Under the pieces are notes generated by a model, which ran no database searches, was not told where the DNA came from, and saw nothing but the letters and a program-made list of their open reading frames with translations. A stretch of 64,000 bases of DNA. Origin: Shigella phage SFPB. Numbering within the stretch: position 1 is the first letter of the stretch; each line of letters opens with the position of its first letter. The DNA is taken from the sequence record OQ031072. The stretch is one strand, 5' to 3'. Made by a program: the position numbers and the translations under genes. Shown piece by piece: positions 17,867 through 57,726 of the stretch.

Positions 17867-18765
17867 CTACTTACCTACTGATAAAGGTGCTTCAATCTTA
17901 CCAGCATGTTTATACCCTTTCAACCCACCTAGAAAGTCATCTGCTGTCATATGTCTCAAGTCTTCAAGAGACTTCAAATCTTGATGAATTTCAAACTTAG
18001 GTGCTGGAAACTCTTCATTACCAAGAAGTTGAAAAACCTGCGACATATGGTTCTGGTATATTTGAGTATCACCATAAGTCCCTATCAGATATCGCGGTGT
18101 ATATCCCGTCAGTTTACACAACACTTCCAAGATAAAGGCATAGGAAGCGATGTTAAACGGTAACCCTAAGAACGTATCACAAGAACGCTGATACCATTTT
18201 AAATCCACCTCATTAGTGTTCGAGATATAAATCTGAAAAAGTACATGACAAGGTGCTAATGCCATAGAGTTACTTGAGATATCTGCTGCATTCCATGCGT
18301 TAACGAGCATGTAACGGTCTGTAGGGGACTTTCTCATCTTCTCTACAAGATTACTCAACTGGTCTACAACAACACCACCATGACCTTCGTAGGCTCTCCA
18401 TTGGACTCCGTAGATTCTTCCTCCAGCGTCCTCCAGCCAATCATTCTCTGTAGCATAGGTTGTTTTCAACCAACGTTTAAAATCATCTGTCCAGATAGTC
18501 CAACGCTCTCCGTCGTTCTCCCCCAAGTTCTGTAACGCAAATGGCCTAGTTGGTTTTCACCGTTCATAAACCATAATGCTTCACCGAGGACTTGACGCAT
18601 AAATGTTTGTTTTGAGGTGATTAATGGGAATCCACTACGCATATCAAAACGGAACTCAGGTGGAGCAAAGGTCGAAATCACTGAGCCAGTTCGGGTTTTA
18701 CGCAACTCACCAACTGATAAAACATGGTTTAAAATAGCTTTGTAGCTTACATCTGCTTGTGACAT
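17867..18765 (-). CDS. thyA: thymidylate synthase, frame interrupted (N-terminal ORF 18466..18765, C-terminal ORF 17867..18526); apparent 1-nt deficit at the G5/C5 run 18520-18524
   Basis: N-terminal part has RTGxG...FPLITSK...LWF; C-terminal part has ...WNAADISSNSMALAPCH...FQ..Y and LGLPFNIASYA; the two ORFs are in different frames. Confidence 0.85.
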
Positions 18766-33736: not shown

Positions 33737-34777
33737 ATGGAACAATACACCTTAACAAAGCTCCCAGAGAGCGTTACACACGTCTTTATTGACTCTGATA
33801 GCATTGCTTACAAAGGTGCTTGTGTAGTTGAAAAAGCAAAGTACAAGTATGTGAATAAAATCACTGCTGAAGAATCCGACGCTTTTGATAGTGCAAAACT
33901 GGCAGCACAATGGCTGTCTGACCAAAGAGTTTTAACTGAAGAGTTAGGACTTGACTTTGATGAAGATGAATGGGAAAGACAGACTTGGAAGGAGGCTAAG
34001 AGTGAAGCTGAAGCAATTATGGCTACACAGCAAGTTCTTCAGGAGTGGTTGAAAGTCGTTGGTAAAGAACGCAAATGGATGGGTTACCTTACTGAGAAAG
34101 GTGTTCACAAACACAAGGATATCAAAGGTCTTGAACACCAATATCAAGGTAACAGAAAAGAAGCTGTAACACCTACACACCTAGTTGCTTGTCGTGAGTA
34201 TCTTCTGTCACGACCAGAGTTTAAGCTCTTAAAAGGGGGCTTCGAAGCAGACTCTATCGTTATTGCAAAAGCTGAGAAGATGGGGAAAAAAGCTGCTCTG
34301 ATGAGTATTGATAAAGACCTTCGTCAAGCTGAAGGAACTTACTGTATTGATATGACTTACGAGAAAGCTCCATTAATTTTCATTGCAGATAATAACGTTG
34401 GTGAGATTTGGGATTGCCCTATCAAATCTAAACCGAAAGCTAAGAAGACAGTCGGAGTAGGTTTTAAATTCCTCTGCTATCAAGCTGTAGCAGGTGATAA
34501 TGCAGACAACTACTTCGGTTTAAAAGGTGCTGGTAAGGTTGCGGTGATGAATGCACTGGAAGGTAAAACTACCTACAAAGAGTGCTTAGATGCCATCTAT
34601 GAACTTTATGCTAAGAAAGAGTCATACACTTATGAATCGTGGGATGGTCAGATTGTGACAAGAACTCCACTAGAATTAATGGAGCAACACTTCTGGATTG
34701 CTTATCAAGAACGAAATCCTAAAGATGATTTTACGTTTAAAAAATACAATTGGGAGCCAGTTATGAATGAAGATTAA
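33737..34777 (+). CDS. 5'-3' exonuclease / flap endonuclease (RNase H-like); start trimmed
   Basis: H3TH-like segment LCYQAVAGDNADNYFGLKGAGKVAV; N-terminal acidic nuclease fold residues. Confidence 0.6.
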   Translation: MEQYTLTKLPESVTHVFIDSDSIAYKGACVVEKAKYKYVNKITAEESDAFDSAKLAAQWLSDQRVLTEELGLDFDEDEWERQTWKEAKSEAEAIMATQQVLQEWLKVVGKERKWMGYLTEKGVHKHKDIKGLEHQYQGNRKEAVTPTHLVACREYLLSRPEFKLLKGGFEADSIVIAKAEKMGKKAALMSIDKDLRQAEGTYCIDMTYEKAPLIFIADNNVGEIWDCPIKSKPKAKKTVGVGFKFLCYQAVAGDNADNYFGLKGAGKVAVMNALEGKTTYKECLDAIYELYAKKESYTYESWDGQIVTRTPLELMEQHFWIAYQERNPKDDFTFKKYNWEPVMNED

Positions 34778-35267
34778 AGGATTTGGAAATTGCCCTGTTT
34801 ATGGACATTGGGTTTCACTGTGCGGGGAAATTGACCCCGCTAACTATTTTGGTTTTGTCTATTTAGTATACTGTAAGAAAACTGGACAATATTATATTGG
34901 GAAGAAACAATTTAATAACGTCACTAAGAAAAAGGTTGCTGGAAAGACCAGACGTAAAGTCGTGACAAAAGAAAGTGATTGGATGACTTATCAAACATCT
35001 TCTGAGTACATTAAGAAGGATATTGAATCTTTTGGTGAAAAAGAGTTTGACTTCTACATCATCCAGACTTACTATACGCGAGGTGGCTTAGTTTATGGCG
35101 AAGCTAACCTACAACATAAGTTTGACGTCATGACAAAAAGGATTGACTCTAAGCTTCGACTCTTCTACAATGCGAACATTGCAGCAATCAAGTTTCTTAC
35201 AAAAGAGACTTATGATGAAGCTGAGAAGAGAATCACTAAAATCATGAAACTTAATGAGAGAGTTTAA
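34767..35267 (+). CDS. GIY-YIG homing endonuclease-like protein
   Basis: FGFVYLVYCKKTGQYYIGKK matches GIY-(N10)-YIG. Confidence 0.55.
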   Translation: MKIKGFGNCPVYGHWVSLCGEIDPANYFGFVYLVYCKKTGQYYIGKKQFNNVTKKKVAGKTRRKVVTKESDWMTYQTSSEYIKKDIESFGEKEFDFYIIQTYYTRGGLVYGEANLQHKFDVMTKRIDSKLRLFYNANIAAIKFLTKETYDEAEKRITKIMKLNERV

Positions 35268-35268
35268 A

Positions 35269-35484
35269 ATGTTTAATAAAATCAAAAATGACCATGTTTC
35301 TAAAATCCAGAGTGGCGTAGCAGCACTGAAGGAAACTATCAGTAAAGCTAAGTCAGCTACAGAAGCTGAGATGGATGCTCTGGAATCACAAATTCAACAT
35401 CTGTTAAGCAAACGTGTTGAACTCAAAGAACGAATGGACTATATTGAGTCTCAACAAAAGTTGTTTGAAGATAAGGAGGCTTAA
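35269..35484 (+). CDS. hypothetical coiled-coil protein; start trimmed
   Basis: SD GAGAG; 71 aa. Confidence 0.4.
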   Translation: MFNKIKNDHVSKIQSGVAALKETISKAKSATEAEMDALESQIQHLLSKRVELKERMDYIESQQKLFEDKEA

Positions 35485-36239
35485 TGTTTAATTCCAGAGA
35501 ATCCGTAAGAAATTGGAATCTACGTTGTGGCAATAATCCAAAAGAGCCATACAGTACAGAGTATTGGGAATCACTGAAAAGTCAATCTCTGTGTATGATT
35601 GAAGAAGCTAGAGAGTTAGTCGCAGCAGTAGAAGCCAAAGACCCTGTTGAGACCCTTGATGCTCAAGCTGATTTGCAGTATGTACTTGACGGTTTAATTT
35701 TCCTGACACAACATGACCATGATGGTGCTATTAAGGCTGTTTGTGAAAACAACAACCTCAAATACACAGATGACTATCAAGAAGCTTTACAGCGAATGTT
35801 TGATATTGAGAAACGTACTGGTGATGAATGTTACCTGCGTCAATCAATTATTGAAGGTAAAGAGTGGTTTGCGATTATTCGCAAGTCTGATGGTAAGATT
35901 ATGAAACAGTCTAATCTTCCAAAAGTTCAACTTGAAAGTTTTATTGCAGAAGTTGACGCAAAAGAATTATTTGTGGTAACATCTGACACATGCGTTATCT
36001 GCCAAGGACTGATTGGAAGTCTTGGTAGTCTTGGCATTAAAAACTTTTCTAAAGTTGAACCAATCTCTTCAAAAGCAGATAAAGACTTCTGCCGTGAGAA
36101 TGGATTATGGCTTGCGGATATTGTGTACTATGATGGTGAGAAGTTCCATGTAACCTCATATCCGAAATTGAATTATGATGCAATCAACCTCAAGCAGTGG
36201 TTGAAAGGAGTCGGTTATAATGGATTCACAGAACATTAA
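35484..36239 (+). CDS. MazG-like nucleotide pyrophosphohydrolase domain fused to a CxxC-containing C-terminal domain
   Basis: N-terminal LCMIEEARELVAAVEAKDPVETLDAQADLQYVLDGLIF resembles MazG/HisE helices; C-terminal CVICQG. Confidence 0.45.
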   Translation: MFNSRESVRNWNLRCGNNPKEPYSTEYWESLKSQSLCMIEEARELVAAVEAKDPVETLDAQADLQYVLDGLIFLTQHDHDGAIKAVCENNNLKYTDDYQEALQRMFDIEKRTGDECYLRQSIIEGKEWFAIIRKSDGKIMKQSNLPKVQLESFIAEVDAKELFVVTSDTCVICQGLIGSLGSLGIKNFSKVEPISSKADKDFCRENGLWLADIVYYDGEKFHVTSYPKLNYDAINLKQWLKGVGYNGFTEH

Positions 36240-41045: not shown

Positions 41046-43187
41046 ATGGTTAAAGTACAAATTATTAAGAAAGACGGTTCACTGGAAAAGCCAAACGTAA
41101 ATAAAATCGTCGAAGCAGTTACCAAGTCAGCTAATAGAGTTGGCTACAAAGAGTTACCACTAGAAGTTACCCATGCTCTTGAATCAGCCTTTATGAGACT
41201 GCTTGTCAGAGCAACTAATCAGAATGCTATGCTCATCTCTGTAGATGATGTTCACAGTATTGTAGAAGGGACTCTGGCAGAGGTAAACCATGAAATCTAT
41301 GAGTCATATTCAACCTACAGAAACTATCGTAAAGAGGTTGCACAGAATTGGGATGAACTTTACCAGAAAACTAAAGACACACTCTTCTTAGGTGACCGTG
41401 AGAATGCTAACTTTGACAGTAGCTTAATCTCTACAAAAGGTTCAATCATCCGTGGATATTTGACAAAAGAAATCTTTAAGCAGTATCACTTGACACCAGA
41501 AGAAGCAAGTGCTATTGAAGATGGATTCATTTATATCCATGACTTAAGAGACTTAATCTTCGGTGGTATTAACTGTTGCTTGTTTGACATGGGAAGCGTC
41601 TTGAAAGGTGGTTTTGAAATGTCAGGCATCGAATACTGTGAACCAAAGTCTGTACTTTCAGCTTTACAGGTTATTGGTGACGTTGTACTCTCAGCAACTG
41701 CACAGCAATTTGGTGGGTTTACTATCCCAGAGATTGACAAGGTTCTTGTGCCATATGCTAAGAAGTCTTTTGAGTATCATCTGGAGAAAGCAAAGCAGTA
41801 TAATATCCCAAGTAAAGAAGTATACCACTACGCTAAAGAGCAACTTCAGATTGAGCTAACCCAAGGCTTCCAATCTCTGGAAATGAAACTGAATACAGTT
41901 CCTTGCAGCCGTGGTGATTTTGCATTCACAACTTTAACGTTTGGTTTACTCGAACCAGATATGGCTAGTGAAGATAACCGCTTGCAATTTATGATTGCAA
42001 AGACTATTCTTGATGTGAGAATGAATGGTCAAGGCAAGTCTAAGAAGCCTGTTGTATTCCCTAAACTGGTTTACATTTATGATGAGACAAGGCACATGTT
42101 AGACCCTTGGCAGGGAACTCTTTATGACAAAGCTATTGAGTGCTGTTCTAAAGCTATGTATCCAGACTTCTTAAGTGTTTCTGGTCATGGTTCTGTTGCA
42201 GAAGCTTTTGAGCGTTCAGGTGCAGTCATCTCTCCAATGGGTTGTAGGGCTTTCTTATCACCATATTATGATGAAGATGGTAAAGAGTTCTACACAGGGC
42301 GAGCAAATATCGGTGCAGTATCTCTTAATCTGCCAATGATTTACAAGTATTCTGAAGAGAATGGTTTAGACTTCTGGACAGAACTTGACAAATACCTTGA
42401 AATGATTCGAAGCTTCCATAAGAAGCGTTATGAGATGATTGCTAATATGCCAGCAAGCTCTAACCCTTTAGCTTTCACACAAGGTGGATTGTATAAAGGA
42501 CATAAGAAGCCAACTGATAAGATTGGTTGGGATACTGTTAAGTCTTTTACAGCATCTTTTGGCGTGACCGCATTAGATGAATTAACAGTGCTTGCTCAAG
42601 GTAGAAGATTGCATGAGTCTGATGGTGATATTGCAAGCAAGGTTTTAAGCTATCTGAATAGCAAGCTGGAGCAGTTTAAGCAGGAAGACGGCTTCCTGTA
42701 TGCACTTTATGGTACACCTGCTGAGAGTCTTTGTGGTACGCAATTGAAGCAGTTTAGAAATATGTTCGGAGTTGTTAAAGGTGTTTCTGATAAAGAGTAC
42801 TTTACAAACAGTTTCCACATGAATGTTGGTGCAGACATTACACCGTTTGAAAAGCAAGACTTAGAAGAACCTTTCTTCCACTCTTGTAATGGAGGCCATA
42901 TCATCTACTCAAGGTTAGCCAATCCTGAGAACTTGCAAGCTATCAGGGCTTGTGTAACAAGGGGTATGGGTAAAGGATTCTATCAAGGTATCAACTTTGA
43001 CTTAGCAATCTGTGAAAATTGTGGTCACAGACCTAACAAAGATGTTGAACTATGCCCTAAGTGCAACTCCCATGATATCTCTGTGATTAATCGTGTGTGT
43101 GGTTATCTAGGTTGGACTAAGATTAAAGGTACTTCCAGAATGAACGATGCAAAAATTGCAGAAATCAAGGACAGAGTATGTATGTAA
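41046..43187 (+). CDS. nrdD: anaerobic ribonucleotide reductase, class III; start trimmed to ATG after terminator and AGGAG
   Basis: C-terminal glycyl-radical motif RVCGYLG and Cys4 zinc site CENCGH...CPKCNSHD. Confidence 0.9.
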   Translation: MVKVQIIKKDGSLEKPNVNKIVEAVTKSANRVGYKELPLEVTHALESAFMRLLVRATNQNAMLISVDDVHSIVEGTLAEVNHEIYESYSTYRNYRKEVAQNWDELYQKTKDTLFLGDRENANFDSSLISTKGSIIRGYLTKEIFKQYHLTPEEASAIEDGFIYIHDLRDLIFGGINCCLFDMGSVLKGGFEMSGIEYCEPKSVLSALQVIGDVVLSATAQQFGGFTIPEIDKVLVPYAKKSFEYHLEKAKQYNIPSKEVYHYAKEQLQIELTQGFQSLEMKLNTVPCSRGDFAFTTLTFGLLEPDMASEDNRLQFMIAKTILDVRMNGQGKSKKPVVFPKLVYIYDETRHMLDPWQGTLYDKAIECCSKAMYPDFLSVSGHGSVAEAFERSGAVISPMGCRAFLSPYYDEDGKEFYTGRANIGAVSLNLPMIYKYSEENGLDFWTELDKYLEMIRSFHKKRYEMIANMPASSNPLAFTQGGLYKGHKKPTDKIGWDTVKSFTASFGVTALDELTVLAQGRRLHESDGDIASKVLSYLNSKLEQFKQEDGFLYALYGTPAESLCGTQLKQFRNMFGVVKGVSDKEYFTNSFHMNVGADITPFEKQDLEEPFFHSCNGGHIIYSRLANPENLQAIRACVTRGMGKGFYQGINFDLAICENCGHRPNKDVELCPKCNSHDISVINRVCGYLGWTKIKGTSRMNDAKIAEIKDRVCM

Positions 43188-43633
43188 AGGAGCTTCTTTG
43201 CTACAATCCAGAAAATGGTGAAATAAGATGGAAGAGTGACGGCAGCCTTGCTGGAAGTAAAATTTCAGGAGGCTACATTCTCATAACACTTCCAGATGGT
43301 TCCAAAGAATATGCTCACAGACTGGCATTCTTACTTATGGGTGAAGAGATACCTGAGTTAGTAGACCACATCAATGGTATTAGAGATGATAACCGTTGGA
43401 GCAACTTAAGAAGCTCTAACAAGGTTGATAATGCTTGTAATGCTAAATTAAGAGATGACAATAAAACAGGGTATAAAGGTATTTCTTGGGACTCTTCGAG
43501 AAAGAGGTGGAGAGTTTCAATAACCTATAACAAAAGGACAGTTTCCAAGAGATTCAAAAACTTTGAAGATGCTGTAGAGTACATGCAAGACTTAAGATTG
43601 GAACTTCATTCACAGTACTGTAGGTTCAAATAA
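43178..43633 (+). CDS. HNH homing endonuclease-like protein
   Basis: AHRLAFLLMGEEIPELVDHINGIRDDNRWSNL (HNH_3-like); basic C-terminal domain. Confidence 0.6.
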   Translation: MYVKELLCYNPENGEIRWKSDGSLAGSKISGGYILITLPDGSKEYAHRLAFLLMGEEIPELVDHINGIRDDNRWSNLRSSNKVDNACNAKLRDDNKTGYKGISWDSSRKRWRVSITYNKRTVSKRFKNFEDAVEYMQDLRLELHSQYCRFK

Positions 43634-45236: not shown

Positions 45237-45548
45237 ATGGAAAAGGTTTATAACACTCGTAAAATTCAGATTTCTATCCTGTGCCAGTTTATGGCTGATA
45301 AACACAACTCCCACTATTGTGGTACAGGTTTCCTTACTCTAGGTGGTGGCTACATTAGCTTCAAAGAAGCTGTGAAGATGTATAATGAGCACCCTGAAGA
45401 TGACAAAGAGTTGAAACAACTGAAGCTTACTTATGACAAGAAGCGTAAGAAAATTATCTGCTTGAACAATTTTATCAAGCCAACTGAGAACGTCTATGAT
45501 GCAATTGGTGAAGAAGGCTTCTTCAAAGTCTTGAAATTAACTCAGTAA
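45237..45548 (+). CDS. hypothetical protein
   Basis: 103-aa ORF with SD. Confidence 0.45.
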   Translation: MEKVYNTRKIQISILCQFMADKHNSHYCGTGFLTLGGGYISFKEAVKMYNEHPEDDKELKQLKLTYDKKRKKIICLNNFIKPTENVYDAIGEEGFFKVLKLTQ

Positions 45549-45561
45549 ATGTATATGATTA

Positions 45562-45590
45562 GGGAACTGTAAAAGGTTCCTTTTTATTTT
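45562..45590 (+). terminator. rho-independent terminator with TGTAAAAG loop
   Basis: GGGAAC tgtaaaag GTTCC then TTTTTATTTT; same loop as terminator at 4855. Confidence 0.55.
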
Positions 45591-45599
45591 GGAGAAATC

Positions 45600-46115
45600 A
45601 TGTACCATTCAAATCTGAAACGTGCTGCTGCAATGTCTGTTCTTCGTCTTGATTTTGATGAGCGTCAAGAGTTTATCGATTCACATCAGTATGACCCTTC
45701 AAATTCTAACCACATGGTACTTTGGAACCGTGGTAAGTTTCGTGATAGTGCCTTGTTCCAGTACTACCCTCACTATACTATTGACAACCTCTATGAATAC
45801 TGTGTTGTCAAGAACACTATTGCAACCCTTAATAAGCTTTGTAGATATTCTGGAAAGAAAGCTTTCACATTAGGCCACCATAAGCCCGTGACAAAAGGTG
45901 GAGAGCACCATTGCTCAAACTGGTTTATCCAGACTCAAGAAGATAACCAGAAGCAGGGAGAGAAGCTTCCAGAGGCTCCTAAGATGACTTGGGAGGAACA
46001 GAAAGCATATCTTAAAAATAATATGCCACCAATGCTTGACAGGGAATATGCAGTTCTGGCAATATCACTCTTGTTGAAGCTTGAGACAGTTTATGAGGCA
46101 ACTTATCATGGCTAG
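45600..46115 (+). CDS. HNH endonuclease-like protein
   Basis: LGHHKPVTKGGEHHCSNWFIQTQEDNQKQGEK (HH...GG...N...N..K). Confidence 0.5.
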   Translation: MYHSNLKRAAAMSVLRLDFDERQEFIDSHQYDPSNSNHMVLWNRGKFRDSALFQYYPHYTIDNLYEYCVVKNTIATLNKLCRYSGKKAFTLGHHKPVTKGGEHHCSNWFIQTQEDNQKQGEKLPEAPKMTWEEQKAYLKNNMPPMLDREYAVLAISLLLKLETVYEATYHG

Positions 46116-46386
46116 AGAACAATGGGATATCAAAGAGCTAATTAGCGAAGCTGGAAATGGTAGTGAGATGTATATGATACGTGGTCACGTCCCAGATGCA
46201 CTTGCTATTGAGATGATAGACCACTACTCCAACGGATTCTATAAAGAGTTTGGAGAGCCAAATATTGAACGTACTTGGACAAAACCAGTACCAGACGGAA
46301 CAGGAAACTGTTCAGTTATCTACCATATTGTAGACCCAAAGAAATGTAAATCAGCTATGGCTGTAACATTTGTAACTTTTGATTGA
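46108..46386 (+). CDS. hypothetical protein; start trimmed
   Basis: SD GAGG; 92 aa. Confidence 0.4.
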   Translation: MAREQWDIKELISEAGNGSEMYMIRGHVPDALAIEMIDHYSNGFYKEFGEPNIERTWTKPVPDGTGNCSVIYHIVDPKKCKSAMAVTFVTFD

Positions 46387-46396
46387 GAGAAATATT

Positions 46397-47278
46397 ATGA
46401 AAACTACTATTCGAGTTCTACTTAATTCAAATTCCAAAGGTTCTCATCAAGAGACCTTCAACATTATCCAGTTCCCTTCTGGGGAGATTGGTGGTAACTT
46501 CTCAGAAGACTTAGTAGACTTTGCTGAACATGCTGCTGGTAAGATTGAAAACGTAATATTCACTGTACAAGGTTATGACAAAGACACACTCTTTGCATTG
46601 GCTATGGCTAAAGAAGCAATTGACCGTTTGATTCCTCAGAAAGCAACCCTGAAAACTGTTGTCTTTGGATTCTTACCAAATGCTCGCTATGACCGTCACA
46701 TGTTTAAAGGTGATGCAGCAGCACTTAAAGTCTTTGCAAATCTTGTAAATGCTATGGAGTTCGATGCAGTATGTGCTCTGGATACTCACAGTAATGTTGC
46801 AGAGAATTTGTTTAAGAGCTTCTACAACCTCCCTCAAAAAGAGGCAGCAGTCCACTTTGCAAGTGACCCACGCATTGATTACTTAGTGGCTCCAGATGCA
46901 GGTGCAGCTAAGAAGACTGAAGAGGCTGCTAAAGAGGTTGAGAAACCTTACATTACAATGGCTAAGGTACGAAACCTGAAAACTGGTGAAATCACTGGTA
47001 TGCGAATCCTTGATGATGTAGACTTGACAGGTAAGACCGTCATGATTCTGGATGATATCTGTGACGGTGGTCGAACATTTATCGAGGCTGCAAAGTATCT
47101 TCGTGAAGCTGGAGCAGAACGTGTAGAACTGTATGTCACTCATGGGATTTTCTCTAAAGGTGTTGAAAATCTCCTTGACAATGGTATCGACCATATCTAC
47201 ACTACAAACTCACTAGGGGATGAAAAAGACCGTGGTCTTTCCCACTTCTCACAAGTGACCGTAGCAAATATTGAATAA
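46397..47278 (+). CDS. ribose-phosphate pyrophosphokinase (Prs)-family enzyme; candidate ADP-ribose pyrophosphokinase (Adps-like); start trimmed
   Basis: Prs architecture: N-domain FPSGEI, DTHS segment, phosphoribosyltransferase loop GKTVMILDDICDGGRTF. Confidence 0.7.
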   Translation: MKTTIRVLLNSNSKGSHQETFNIIQFPSGEIGGNFSEDLVDFAEHAAGKIENVIFTVQGYDKDTLFALAMAKEAIDRLIPQKATLKTVVFGFLPNARYDRHMFKGDAAALKVFANLVNAMEFDAVCALDTHSNVAENLFKSFYNLPQKEAAVHFASDPRIDYLVAPDAGAAKKTEEAAKEVEKPYITMAKVRNLKTGEITGMRILDDVDLTGKTVMILDDICDGGRTFIEAAKYLREAGAERVELYVTHGIFSKGVENLLDNGIDHIYTTNSLGDEKDRGLSHFSQVTVANIE

Positions 47279-47286
47279 AAACTTTA

Positions 47287-47302
47287 GGGGCTGAAAAGCC
47301 CC
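47287..47302 (+). other. intergenic GGGGCT-GAAA-AGCCCC hairpin (no U-tract) between Prs-like and Nampt-like genes
   Basis: perfect 6-bp stem with GAAA loop. Confidence 0.4.
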
Positions 47303-47322
47303 ACTTTGAGAGAGATAAAAAG

Positions 47323-49149
47323 ATGACTAAATCAATCTATGCAGTACCAGCAGGTCTTAATGCAGATGCTTATAAAGCGGGTCATATCTATCAGTATCCA
47401 GATGCTACACAGTATCTTATGTTGAACTTAACACCTCGTGGAGATAAATGGTTTAACTCTCCGTTAGAGATTGATGGTGTTGTAGCTTTTGGTATTCAGC
47501 GTTTTGTAAAAGACTATCTGGTAGACCACTGGAATGCAACGTTCTTTGAACGTGATAAGAAAGAAGCCATTGACGAAATCTTGGAAATCATGAATGGTGT
47601 CCTTGGTGCAGATACTATTGGTCGTCAACATTGGGAAGAACTTCATGACTTGGGTTACCTACCTGTTGAAGTCTACTCTGTAGAGGAAGGTACAATTGTC
47701 CCTATGCGTGTCCCGATGATTGTCTTCAAAAATACTGTAGAGGGATTCCATTGGGTAGCTGGTTACCTTGAAGATGCTTTCTCTGCTGAAATCTGGAAAG
47801 CTTGTACGATTGCAACTATTGCACTGCATTACAAACGTATTTGTAAGCAATGGGCTGATTTAACCTGTGACAACGACTCCCATTTACCTTGGCAGTGTCA
47901 TGACTTTGCAATGCGTGGCATGTCTGGCTTCACAGATGATGCGTTTAACGCAGTAGGACACCTGACAAGCTTTAAAGGCACTGACAGCTTCCCTGCTGTC
48001 TACACTGCTAAACGTTCTTATGGTCAGTTTATGGAAGTAAGTGATATCGGCAACTCTGTACCAGCTACTGAACACTCTGTGATGTGCGCAAACATTTCAT
48101 GGAATATGAAAGACTTGTCAGAGGAAGATATTCATTCACAGTACATCATGCGGTCTGATAGCTTGCTGGATGCAAAACGTTGGCGTGGTGAGGTTAAAAC
48201 CTTTGAGCATTTACTGGTAGACGTATATCCAACTGGTATTGCAAGTGTTGTTTCAGATACTTACAACTTCTGGCGTACTGTTACAGAGATTCTGCCAGAG
48301 CTACGTAATGTAATTCTGAATCGTGATGGTAAGTTGGTAATTCGTCCAGACTCTGGAGACCCTGTTCACATTGTTACAGGTTACAAAGCCGTTGAATGGG
48401 AAACTGCTAAGTCAATGTTCTACAAGCACATGAAAGGTCTTGCACCAGATAATACCCATCTGCATGACACAATCTTGAATTGTGAAATGTCTGATATTGG
48501 TTTTGGGTTCTCTGCTTGGTTAATCTCTGAAGGTTATGAGATGGTTGTTGAAAATGAAGATTTTGATTATATTGATACAATCAACCTGATTACCGCTCAG
48601 AAAACTGGACAGTTTACTGTGAAGCGTATGTTAACAGCAGAAATTGATGGAGCTATCCACACGCTGTATAACATATTTGGTGGCACTGTTAACTCCAAAG
48701 GGTACAAAGTACTGGATGAGCACATTGGGCTAATCTACGGTGATTCTATCACTCTGGAAAGGGCTAATGAGATTCTGTCACGTCTTGCTGATAAAGGTTT
48801 TGCAAGTTCTAACGTGGTGTTTGGTGTAGGCTCATATACCTATCAGTACCTGACCCGTGACACCTTTGCATTTGCTGTTAAAGCAACTCTTGCACAGATG
48901 GATGGTCAAGAAATTATGCTGGCTAAAGACCCTAAAACTGACAGTGGTCTTAAGAAGTCTGCTTTTGGTGGGGTTGTCCCTATGTGGGATGGTGACAAGC
49001 TGGTAGCTGTAGATGGTTTTGGATTTGCAGAGTTTGAAGGTGCAATTGACAATTGCCATAGTGCTTTGAAACTGGTATTTAGCAATTCACAGGCTTGTAA
49101 CCGTGTTAACCTGCGTGATGTTCGAAATACTATTGACAAGCAACTTTAA
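47323..49149 (+). CDS. nicotinamide phosphoribosyltransferase (Nampt/NadV)-family enzyme; candidate Namat-like
   Basis: LNADAYKAGHIYQYP, HDFAMRGMSGF...FKGTDSF and IRPDSGDP segments align with Nampt. Confidence 0.8.
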   Translation: MTKSIYAVPAGLNADAYKAGHIYQYPDATQYLMLNLTPRGDKWFNSPLEIDGVVAFGIQRFVKDYLVDHWNATFFERDKKEAIDEILEIMNGVLGADTIGRQHWEELHDLGYLPVEVYSVEEGTIVPMRVPMIVFKNTVEGFHWVAGYLEDAFSAEIWKACTIATIALHYKRICKQWADLTCDNDSHLPWQCHDFAMRGMSGFTDDAFNAVGHLTSFKGTDSFPAVYTAKRSYGQFMEVSDIGNSVPATEHSVMCANISWNMKDLSEEDIHSQYIMRSDSLLDAKRWRGEVKTFEHLLVDVYPTGIASVVSDTYNFWRTVTEILPELRNVILNRDGKLVIRPDSGDPVHIVTGYKAVEWETAKSMFYKHMKGLAPDNTHLHDTILNCEMSDIGFGFSAWLISEGYEMVVENEDFDYIDTINLITAQKTGQFTVKRMLTAEIDGAIHTLYNIFGGTVNSKGYKVLDEHIGLIYGDSITLERANEILSRLADKGFASSNVVFGVGSYTYQYLTRDTFAFAVKATLAQMDGQEIMLAKDPKTDSGLKKSAFGGVVPMWDGDKLVAVDGFGFAEFEGAIDNCHSALKLVFSNSQACNRVNLRDVRNTIDKQL

Positions 49150-49163
49150 AACAGTATGATAAG

Positions 49164-49187
49164 AGGCTCCTACGGGAGCCTTTTTAA
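49164..49187 (+). terminator. rho-independent terminator
   Basis: AGGCTCC tacg GGAGCCT then TTTTT. Confidence 0.6.
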
Positions 49188-49202
49188 TTTGTGGAGAAGA
49201 AT

Positions 49203-49418
49203 ATGAGATTTAACACGGATTTATTTTATACAGATAGCACTGGATTCTTTGGTGGATATTGTGTAGCATCTTGGCAGTTATGGTTCTCAGAAGAGTACAG
49301 GGGTGATATGCAGGTTTTTGTAGAAGATTATAAGTTCCCTACAAAACCTACTAAACGCCAGATTAGAAAGCTTCGCAGAGAGTTTCGTAAAACTTGCAAA
49401 GGGATTAACAGACTATGA
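49203..49418 (+). CDS. hypothetical small basic protein; start trimmed
   Basis: SD GGAGAAG; 71 aa. Confidence 0.4.
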   Translation: MRFNTDLFYTDSTGFFGGYCVASWQLWFSEEYRGDMQVFVEDYKFPTKPTKRQIRKLRREFRKTCKGINRL

Positions 49419-49750
49419 AAATTAAACAGATGAATGTTAATTTAATCATTGAAGAACGTTGGGAAAACATCAAGCGCCATGAAGATGGTCATAAGTTTAT
49501 CAATGAACTGTTTCAAGCAGCACAATCAGAGTTAGCTTCTGAGATTTATACAACGGTTACTTTGAAGGTTTATATCAAAGGTCTTCCACAGAACCATCAA
49601 GAAGCTCTTGATTTGTTTCAAGAAGAATTTTACAATCCAAACAAAAAGATACTTGAGAATAGTTTTGCAGTATCTTCGAGTATTGTCCATGACAGGAGTT
49701 TTGTCCTATTCAGAACTATAGGAGACAAGGTATGCAAGGTTATTGGTTAG
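49415..49750 (+). CDS. hypothetical protein
   Basis: 111-aa ATGA-coupled ORF. Confidence 0.45.
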   Translation: MKIKQMNVNLIIEERWENIKRHEDGHKFINELFQAAQSELASEIYTTVTLKVYIKGLPQNHQEALDLFQEEFYNPNKKILENSFAVSSSIVHDRSFVLFRTIGDKVCKVIG

Positions 49751-49911
49751 AAATTGTTCTTTCACTCGGTTGTATAGTTGCTATTGCAGTATTACTATGC
49801 AAGTACTTCTCAGAGACTGAACCTTGTGATGAATGTGAAGGTTCTGGGGTAGTTGGTATAGGGCATTGTTGCCCTTACTGTAATGGAACTGGAAAGAAAT
49901 TTAAAAAGTAA
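49732..49911 (+). CDS. small membrane-anchored zinc-ribbon protein (59 aa), not in ORF track
   Basis: SD GGAGACAAGG; N-terminal hydrophobic helix; CDECEGSG...CCPYCNGTG. Confidence 0.35.
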   Translation: MQGYWLEIVLSLGCIVAIAVLLCKYFSETEPCDECEGSGVVGIGHCCPYCNGTGKKFKK

Positions 49912-56931: not shown

Positions 56932-57726
56932 ATGGGTATCGTAAAAATTATTAAAGGTGATATCTTTAAAGACTTTGATGGTAAGAAATTTGATATCATT
57001 GGTCACGGTTGCAACTGCATGAACTTGATGGGTGCAGGTATCGCAGCAACAATTGCCAAACGTTACCCAAAAGCTTATGAAACTGATGCTGAAGTTTATG
57101 CTACAGTAGGTGGTGAAAATCATAACCCTAAGCATCTAATGCTTGGTAACATCTCTGTAGCACGTTTTAAGCAGGGTCGAATTGCTAACCTTTACACTCA
57201 GGTTATCACTGGCAAAGATGCACGATACAACGCCTTAGAAGCAGCTTTACAGCGTCTTAACAACTACTGTAAAGTTAATCAACTTAAGAAAGTTGGACTT
57301 CCTATGATTGGTGCAGGGATTGGTGGTCTTGACAGCATGGCTGTGCTGTCTATCATCAATCAGACCATGAAAGATGTTGACGTTTATATGTATGTCTATG
57401 AAGATAAGATGTACAGTCAGTTGACTAGTCCGGTTACTGGTTGGGAAAACTTTAGTGAACCTCAATACTTTGATGGTGTTGCCGTGGTAGGCAAGGATAA
57501 AGTTACTCTCAAGGTGAAGCGTAATGGTAAGGTACACACCAGTTACCCTCCGGTTGATAAGTACAATCGAAGTAACGCTCAAGTTACCCACCCGTTACAA
57601 GGCCATTGTCACAGAGCCGTAACATTTGGTGATGATGCAAGTGTGTATATCGGTGCTGCTACAGAAGAGTTTGCAGAGGATTATATCACACATGAGAATG
57701 TTAACTATGTTGAAGCACGTAACTAA
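56932..57726 (+). CDS. macro-domain (ADP-ribose binding/processing) protein with C-terminal extension; start trimmed
   Basis: GDIF...FDIIGHGCNCMNLMGAGIAATIAK resembles the macro NAAN...GGGVAGAI signature; second Gly-rich loop LPMIGAGIGGLD. Confidence 0.5.
   Translation: MGIVKIIKGDIFKDFDGKKFDIIGHGCNCMNLMGAGIAATIAKRYPKAYETDAEVYATVGGENHNPKHLMLGNISVARFKQGRIANLYTQVITGKDARYNALEAALQRLNNYCKVNQLKKVGLPMIGAGIGGLDSMAVLSIINQTMKDVDVYMYVYEDKMYSQLTSPVTGWENFSEPQYFDGVAVVGKDKVTLKVKRNGKVHTSYPPVDKYNRSNAQVTHPLQGHCHRAVTFGDDASVYIGAATEEFAEDYITHENVNYVEARN

Follow-up and report, generated by a model that had tools for sequence, protein, structure and literature searches.

A very probable core NARP1 operon for NAD+ reconstitution in a Mooglevirus-type Shigella phage

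The NAD+ reconstitution pathway 1 (NARP1), a route for rebuilding nicotinamide adenine dinucleotide (NAD+), is a major phage counter-defence against all immune systems that break NAD+ down into ADP-ribose (ADPR) plus nicotinamide, and it is present in at least 4% of sequenced phages. In a stretch of 64,000 nucleotides of Shigella phage SFPB (sequence record OQ031072; hereafter the window, about 64 kb of a genome of about 88 kb), two adjacent genes very probably form the core NARP1 of a Mooglevirus-type phage. The evidence computed here covers orthology, signature residues, the predicted fold and the structure of the operon, while the chemistry and the anti-defence phenotype are put forward by analogy with published work on the orthologues of phages Bas63 and SPbetaL1. 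The two genes are as follows:

46397 to 47278, + strand: adps, putative ADP-ribose pyrophosphokinase, the Prs-like first enzyme of NARP1 (293 amino acids)
47323 to 49149, + strand: namat, putative nicotinamide ADP-ribose transferase, the Nampt-like second enzyme of NARP1 (608 amino acids)

In the proposed mechanism, host defences such as SIR2-HerA, DSR1/2, type I Thoeris or SEFIR would split NAD+ into ADPR and nicotinamide. With ATP, Adps would then pyrophosphorylate ADPR at its free ribose C1'', giving ADPR-PP, and Namat, combining Nampt-type chemistry with an adenine-binding clamp, would let nicotinamide displace the pyrophosphate of ADPR-PP to yield NAD+ directly. The phage would thereby replicate despite NAD+ depletion. 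This scheme is modelled on experiments in other phages. Deletion of genes 79-80 from Bas63 led to about 20-fold fewer plaques on SIR2-HerA cells and to the loss of both NAD+ restoration and ADPR-PP, and the effect of the two genes requires neither host pncC nor host nadR; protection from NAD+-depleting defence was shown with Bas63 delta-79-80 and with FADO delta-NARP1 (bioRxiv 10.1101/2024.02.11.579819). The conversion of ADPR to ADPR-PP and on to NAD+ is known enzymologically only from SPbetaL1, DyoEdafos and P. foliorum, and in Bas63 by metabolomics.

An earlier note, made from the letters of the window, had described two adjacent co-oriented genes at 46397-47278 and 47323-49149, carrying Prs-like and Nampt-like peptide motifs and separated by 44 nucleotides that hold a GGGGCT-GAAA-AGCCCC hairpin. 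The open reading frame (ORF) coordinates bear this out, with the spacer at 47279-47322, and all of the quoted motifs were recovered from the translations (FPSGEI, DTHS, GKTVMILDDICDGGRTF, LNADAYKAGHIYQYP, HDFAMRGMSGF, FKGTDSF and IRPDSGDP). The program-made ORF list opens the first gene at an upstream TTG, 46379; the start adopted here is the ATG at 46397, which is preceded by a GAGAG Shine-Dalgarno sequence and agrees with the orthologue starts annotated in Bas63, Michonne and ESh19. The first gene product falls in the Prs family (Pfam Pribosyltran and Pribosyl_synth; TIGR01251, 131.7 bits; phrog_619, E 3e-99) and the second in the Nampt family (NF006629, 469.7 bits; phrog_448, E 2e-198), matches that lie far beyond what chance could explain.

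The closest characterized counterpart is the NARP1 of phage Bas63 (JohannRWettstein; bas63_0079-0080; MZ501086), with which the window shares gene order, orientation, a 293-amino-acid Adps, flanking synteny and the stem of the intergenic hairpin. The two Adps proteins are 81% identical in a gapless alignment of all 293 of 293 residues, and the two Namats are 74% identical (Bas63_0080). In both phages nrdA, nrdB, nrdD and nrdG come first, several small ORFs separate them from adps and namat, and three more small ORFs stand before rIIA and rIIB. The Bas63 Namat also has the same Lys-Trp type of selectivity clamp loop (SCL), the same selectivity clamp helix (SCH) motif and both insertions described below. 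The differences are these: Bas63 is a Felixounavirus whereas the window is Mooglevirus-like, its Namat has 593 amino acids as against 608 here (the first insertion being 15 amino acids longer in the window), and its hairpin loop reads UGAA instead of GAAA.

Among close relatives, nucleotide identity over the region is 98.4% with Shigella phage ESh19 (Ounavirinae, Mooglevirus) and 91-98% with other Shigella, Citrobacter and Escherichia phages of the Mooglevirus group; altogether 257 phage records carry the region, and an identical Namat protein is found on an assembled contig of 84.6 kb. Of Adps-clade genes, 97% have a Namat homologue no more than 10 genes away; here namat adjoins adps on the same strand at a distance of 44 nucleotides. 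ESh19, KPS64, Sf13, Sf15, Sf17 and Michonne are already listed in the NARP1 Supplementary Tables, where, ESh19 included, the Adps entries read "Namat within 10 genes: Yes" and the Namat entries "Adps-associated" (bioRxiv 10.1101/2024.02.11.579819). The locus is thus a known core NARP1 operon, an orthologue of the type example with catalogued close relatives, and the novelty that the earlier note implied was overrated, near-identical genes having been tabulated as NARP1 in the discovery paper. Recognizing such operons correctly nevertheless matters for host-range prediction of therapeutic phages of the Felix-O1 group (Shigella, E. coli, Citrobacter), because the GenBank labels remain "ribose-phosphate pyrophosphokinase" and "nicotinamide phosphoribosyltransferase".

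As judged from sequence, the product of the first gene falls into the Adps clade of the Prs family and is not a bona fide Prs. This placement draws on identity, on hidden Markov model (HMM) scores and on a published tree representative, KPS64, whose Adps stands in the discovery paper's Adps table and is 99.7% identical to the window protein. The profile comparison of Adps with Prs that the earlier note had proposed came out in favour of Adps: an HMM built from 13 published Adps proteins outside Ounavirinae gave the window protein 242 bits against 138 bits for E. coli Prs, and each of these 13 proteins is closer to the window protein than to E. coli Prs. The window protein stays well under the Prs equivalog and subfamily cutoffs (NF002320, 99.9 bits with a cutoff of 297; NF002095, 107.8 bits with a cutoff of 296; others lower), clearing just the broad TIGR01251 subfamily model among the NCBIfam Prs models, and it is 28% identical to E. 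coli Prs. Its K190, in the motif AKVRNLKTGEI, aligns with K162 of SPbetaL1 Adps, an essential catalytic residue and the equivalent of K197 in B. subtilis Prs. This catalytic lysine is kept across an alignment of six sequences, E. coli Prs being off by one column in the MAFFT alignment.

The second gene product carries the more specific marks. A structural study describes Namats as having a Nampt-like catalytic core together with an adenine "selectivity clamp" (PMC12774641; PDB 9W5W, 9W5X). One part of the clamp is a helix motif, GS-X-phi-X-phi-X-phi-TRD, in which positions 3 and 7 are aromatic, and the other is a variable loop with a further stacking residue; this third adenine-stacking residue of the SCL is Arg, or else Lys or Tyr followed by the stacking residue, and the Bas63-type loop has been modelled as stacking through the residue after Lys (PMC12774641). 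The top PDB sequence matches of the window Namat are these same crystal structures, 9W5W and 9W5X (E 8e-125). When the published ligand contacts were transferred through a HMMER alignment to 9W5X, 17 of the 21 contacting positions proved identical to those of SPbetaL1 Namat. Core residues kept in the window protein are D15, Y17, F195, R198, D221, the catalytic H251, R341, D343, G473 and D474; Y17 corresponds to Tyr15 of the SPbetaL1 enzyme, F195 to Phe189, D221 to Asp215 and R341 to Arg306, and H251 is the phospho-His. Mutation of R306 abolishes the activity of SPbetaL1 Namat (PMC12774641).

Both parts of the clamp can be read in the window protein. Its SCH motif is GSYTYQYLTRD at 503-513, in which Y505 and Y509 are equivalent to F392 and Y396 of SPbetaL1; the third phi position is Leu where the consensus has mostly Asn or Val, a minor departure, and the motif is retained in all 30 aligned homologues. 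The SCL reads TPRGDKWFNSP, with K42-W43, and is of the same type as TPRSDKWFNSP in Bas63. An AlphaFold2 model built with 30 homologues (pLDDT 92, pTM 0.91) has 9W5X and 9W5W as its top fold matches, with a template modelling (TM) score of 0.94 on the target, followed by H. ducreyi NadV and human NAMPT. The structure comparison that had been suggested for this gene thus favours Namat, since the model fits the Namat crystal structures better than HdNadV or human NAMPT.

The NARP1 of Bacillus phage SPbetaL1 likewise has Adps and then Namat in one operon, and shares with the window the catalytic lysine, the Namat core and the aromatic clamp of the SCH, and its crystallized Namat superposes on the window prediction with the TM score given above. 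Identity to the window proteins is about 33% for Adps and about 36% for Namat; in the window, Lys42 and Trp43 take the place of the adenine-stacking Arg40, and both window insertions are missing from the SPbetaL1 enzyme. These insertions, at about 258-289 (some 32 amino acids) and about 357-442 (some 86 amino acids), are likewise defined relative to 496-amino-acid bacterial homologues. They are modelled confidently as helices and a small beta sheet and are common to many Namats of Gram-negative phages, with variable length and sequence, and the word "insertion" is not used for these regions in the structural paper (PMC12774641). We also considered a borrowed domain as their origin and rejected it, the fold search of the whole model having given Nampt-family matches only (the insertions were not searched alone).

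Several points weigh against a NARP1 assignment and have to be set beside this evidence. Of the 21 Namat contacts, four are changed relative to the SPbetaL1 enzyme (R40 to K, S190 to A, A362 to S, F392 to Y), of which the R40-to-K and F392-to-Y changes agree with the Bas63 type or with the published consensus. The window Namat has two insertions that the crystallized enzyme is without and that may affect its function. A PDB search for an Adps structure returned Prs structures alone (E at least 8e-17), so that the ADPR specificity of the window Adps is predicted from its clade membership alone. The functional experiments, which would be carried over to this phage by analogy, all come from phages outside Mooglevirus. 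Finally, Namat enzymes retain PRPP-to-NMN activity in vitro, that is, from phosphoribosyl pyrophosphate (PRPP) to nicotinamide mononucleotide (NMN) (PMC12774641), so that some classical salvage is possible.

One other account of the gene pair is general metabolic augmentation, in which the two enzymes would recycle ADPR from normal turnover and so, with or without a defence system in the host, maintain a high NAD+ level for the DNA synthesis of the phage. The surroundings would suit such a role, for the pair lies directly downstream of nrdA/B/D/G and amid nucleotide-metabolism genes; moreover, in Klebsiella, chromosomal operons of Prs-like and Nampt-like genes with a Namat-type motif adjoin NrtR, which suggests a housekeeping role in bacteria. 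We nevertheless regard this account as highly improbable for the window, given that ADPR-PP was detected in Bas63 infections only when a defence system was present and that the Bas63 deletion showed its plating phenotype on SIR2-HerA cells.

The Klebsiella operons deserve a description of their own. The chromosomal pair (284 and 496 amino acids) has the gene order of the window and the Namat-type motif GS(Y/F)TYQYNTRD. The 496-amino-acid bacterial homologues are 44-46% identical to the window Namat, and they differ from it in being without both insertions and in lying on chromosomes beside NrtR, not in lytic phages. On a Klebsiella-type chromosome contig (L011, 4133-6491; protein P0070), the Prs-like/Nampt-like operon is divergently adjacent to an NrtR-type NAD regulator (Nudix plus WHD). 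Enterobacterial chromosomal "prs-nadV" operons may therefore really be chromosomal NARP1.

Classical salvage is the reading that the database labels convey, both genes being annotated as Prs and NadV/Nampt in Pfam, NCBIfam and GenBank, and the original database label being the same. According to it, PRPP would be formed from ribose-5-phosphate by the Prs-like enzyme and joined with nicotinamide to NMN by the Nampt-like enzyme, and host NadR or PncC would complete NAD+. The cellular Prs and NadV/Nampt salvage pathway does share with the window the two protein folds and phosphoribosyltransferase chemistry, the difference being that true Prs and Nampt act on ribose-5-phosphate and PRPP. As the account of the window genes it is scarcely probable at all: the genetic results from Bas63 contradict it, SPbetaL1 Namat shows a strong preference for ADPR-PP, the window Namat possesses an adenine clamp that Nampt is without, and the window Prs-like protein scores with Adps, well under all Prs equivalog cutoffs. 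The choice of the Adps/Namat route over Prs/NadV, as put forward in the earlier note, is accordingly supported in silico by Bas63 orthology and synteny, the Namat clamp, the Adps HMM score and the lack of an NMN adenylyltransferase (NMNAT) or Nudix motif in the window.

This last negative, which had also been claimed earlier, holds for the window. Neither the Nudix box nor the NMNAT motif GxFxPx(H/T)xGH was matched by regular expression in any of the six frames of the window, and no Nudix or nucleotidyltransferase Pfam family was found in 54 scanned ORFs, comprising 10 flanking and 44 other small or mid-sized ones (a set that leaves aside the larger ORFs for replication and structure). NARP2, the Nampt-plus-Nmnat pathway known from Vibrio phage KVP40, was rejected on these searches, which cover the window and not the other 24 kb or so of the genome. 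It has in common with the window a Nampt-fold enzyme and the raising of NAD+ in infection, the latter for the window only by analogy; it differs in using PRPP and an NMN adenylyltransferase, whereas the window has a Prs-like kinase and a transferase with an ADPR-PP clamp.

Published work describes two extended NARP1 operons: NARP1-AP, which adds a Macro-domain phosphatase, and a form that adds RyDEP, a glycosidase with a RyR domain. Both were considered at this locus and rejected: the spacer between adps and namat is geneless, and the flanking ORFs at 45237-46386 and 49191-49911 match only domain-of-unknown-function (DUF) or unknown PHROG families. With no Macro or RyDEP domain in these flanking ORFs, the operon here has the minimal two-gene form.

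Two RNA elements accompany the genes:

47287 to 47302, + strand: intergenic hairpin GGGGCU-GAAA-AGCCCC in the 44-nucleotide adps-namat spacer, with stems at 47287-47292 and 47297-47302
49161 to 49194, + strand: intrinsic terminator closing the operon, found by a terminator scan, with a 10-bp GC-rich stem (49161-49184) followed by the U tract UUUUUAAUUU

The terminator after namat has a folding energy of -20.6 kcal/mol (z -4.25), none of 200 shuffled sequences being as stable, and in phage Michonne a terminator is annotated at the corresponding place. The intergenic hairpin, with its 6-bp GC-rich stem and GAAA loop, reaches -12.8 kcal/mol (z -3.2; 1 of 200 shuffles as stable). What follows it is no more than a brief stretch of U (ACUUUG), so that on the + strand it does not make a canonical terminator. 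The genes adps and namat are probably co-transcribed. The hairpin may well be a weak attenuator or an mRNA-stabilizing stem, and as such it may tune or stabilize the message. ESh19, Michonne, Bas63 and L27 all have the identical stem, with a loop of GAAA or UGAA, and since the stem does not vary across Felixounavirus and Mooglevirus, covariation is not assessable. More distant NARP1 operons do without the hairpin: the spacer of Yersinia phage P778 is 20 nucleotides long, and in Erwinia phage phiEa21-4 the genes overlap. A role as a conserved functional RNA was for this reason rejected; the hairpin is lineage-specific and dispensable for NARP1. A promoter scan was uninformative, with 22 sites against 17.9 +/- 4.3 expected. 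Upstream, two conserved small genes at 45600-46386 on the + strand, phrog_3500 (171 amino acids, with a faint HNH-like match) and phrog_4726 (92 amino acids), have a terminator-like hairpin (45561-45582) before them and adps after them, and they may share a transcript with NARP1.

The sole lead in the present analysis that could extend current knowledge concerns a gene outside the operon:

56932 to 57726, + strand (alternative start 56875): Poa1p/Adpp-family Macro-domain protein, a candidate accessory gene 7.7 kb downstream of namat

The protein matches Pfam Macro with 32.7 bits. It is the one ORF of the window matched by an HMM built on 12 Adpp phosphatases published as NARP1-associated (105.8 bits over model positions 2-152 of 154), and it is 30% identical to the Adpp of Vibrio phage Gary, a validated NARP1-AP phosphatase, over the full length of the latter. 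The top PDB sequence match is yeast Poa1p, an ADPR-1''-P phosphatase, and the structure prediction (pLDDT 91.8) shows a fold of the TARG1/Poa1p/DarG class. In Bas63 the orthologue is Bas63_0095, a "putative phosphatase", at 63% identity. A beta-rich C-terminal extension of about 90-105 amino acids completes the protein, and this long form occurs only in Ounavirinae-like phages.

In the published NARP1-AP, Adps, Adpp and Namat are encoded together, as in Vibrio phage Gary (bioRxiv 10.64898/2026.01.28.702374). The window has the same core Adps and Namat and a genome-encoded Macro protein of the Adpp/Poa1p family, the differences being the extra C-terminal domain and the position of the Macro gene outside the operon, past rIIA/rIIB and PNK. 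No Macro domain lies in the adps-namat operon itself, neither in the 44-nucleotide spacer nor in the two flanking ORF regions named above. Closer linkage in divergent relatives was sought and rejected: two contigs with Namats of about 50-53% identity keep the Macro gene about 9 kb downstream, again past rIIA/rIIB. Tentatively, and with the balance of probability against it, Ounavirinae phages, the window phage and Bas63 among them, may possess a split NARP1-AP, in which the Macro protein would dephosphorylate the ADPR-1''-P produced by a RES-type (aRES) defence and feed ADPR to Adps and Namat. Equally possible is a DarG/TARG1-like de-ADP-ribosylase. The link of the Macro gene to NARP1 is weak, and there are 2682 phage records with the Macro family as against 1380 with Adps; because it is commoner than Adps and includes T4-likes, its association with NARP1 is not specific.

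The survey of aRES and NARP1-AP looked no further than two genes to each side of NARP1, and Ounavirinae entries are missing from its table (bioRxiv 10.64898/2026.01.28.702374). Given this span and these entries, the distal Macro gene is uncatalogued as NARP1-associated, and the finding may be new. A split NARP1-AP, if true, would give these Ounavirinae phages an aRES resistance that the published survey does not predict, and the gene therefore bears on whether phages with core NARP1 are truly aRES-sensitive.

Some other features of the window may be mentioned. ARAGORN found no tRNA genes in the whole window. Two putative homing endonucleases were noted on the + strand in the replication and nucleotide-metabolism block, one GIY-YIG and SegE-like at 34767-35267 (E 1e-27), the other of the HNH_3 type at 43178-43633 (E 7e-11) just past the anaerobic ribonucleotide reductase gene. 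The presence of such genes varies among relatives, with one inside nrdD in Bas63 and an HNH gene adjoining namat in phiSUSP1 and in L005. A 251-amino-acid protein encoded at 35484-36239 (+) has an N-terminal MazG-like/PRA-PH pyrophosphohydrolase domain (PF01503, E 8e-7). On the - strand, thymidylate synthase at 17867-18765 is broken into a pair of ORFs that overlap in different reading frames (17867-18526 and 18466-18765); the segment measures 1051 nucleotides in the window versus 1053 in close relatives with a single annotated gene, which suggests a 2-nucleotide indel that reflects either misassembly or a pseudogene.

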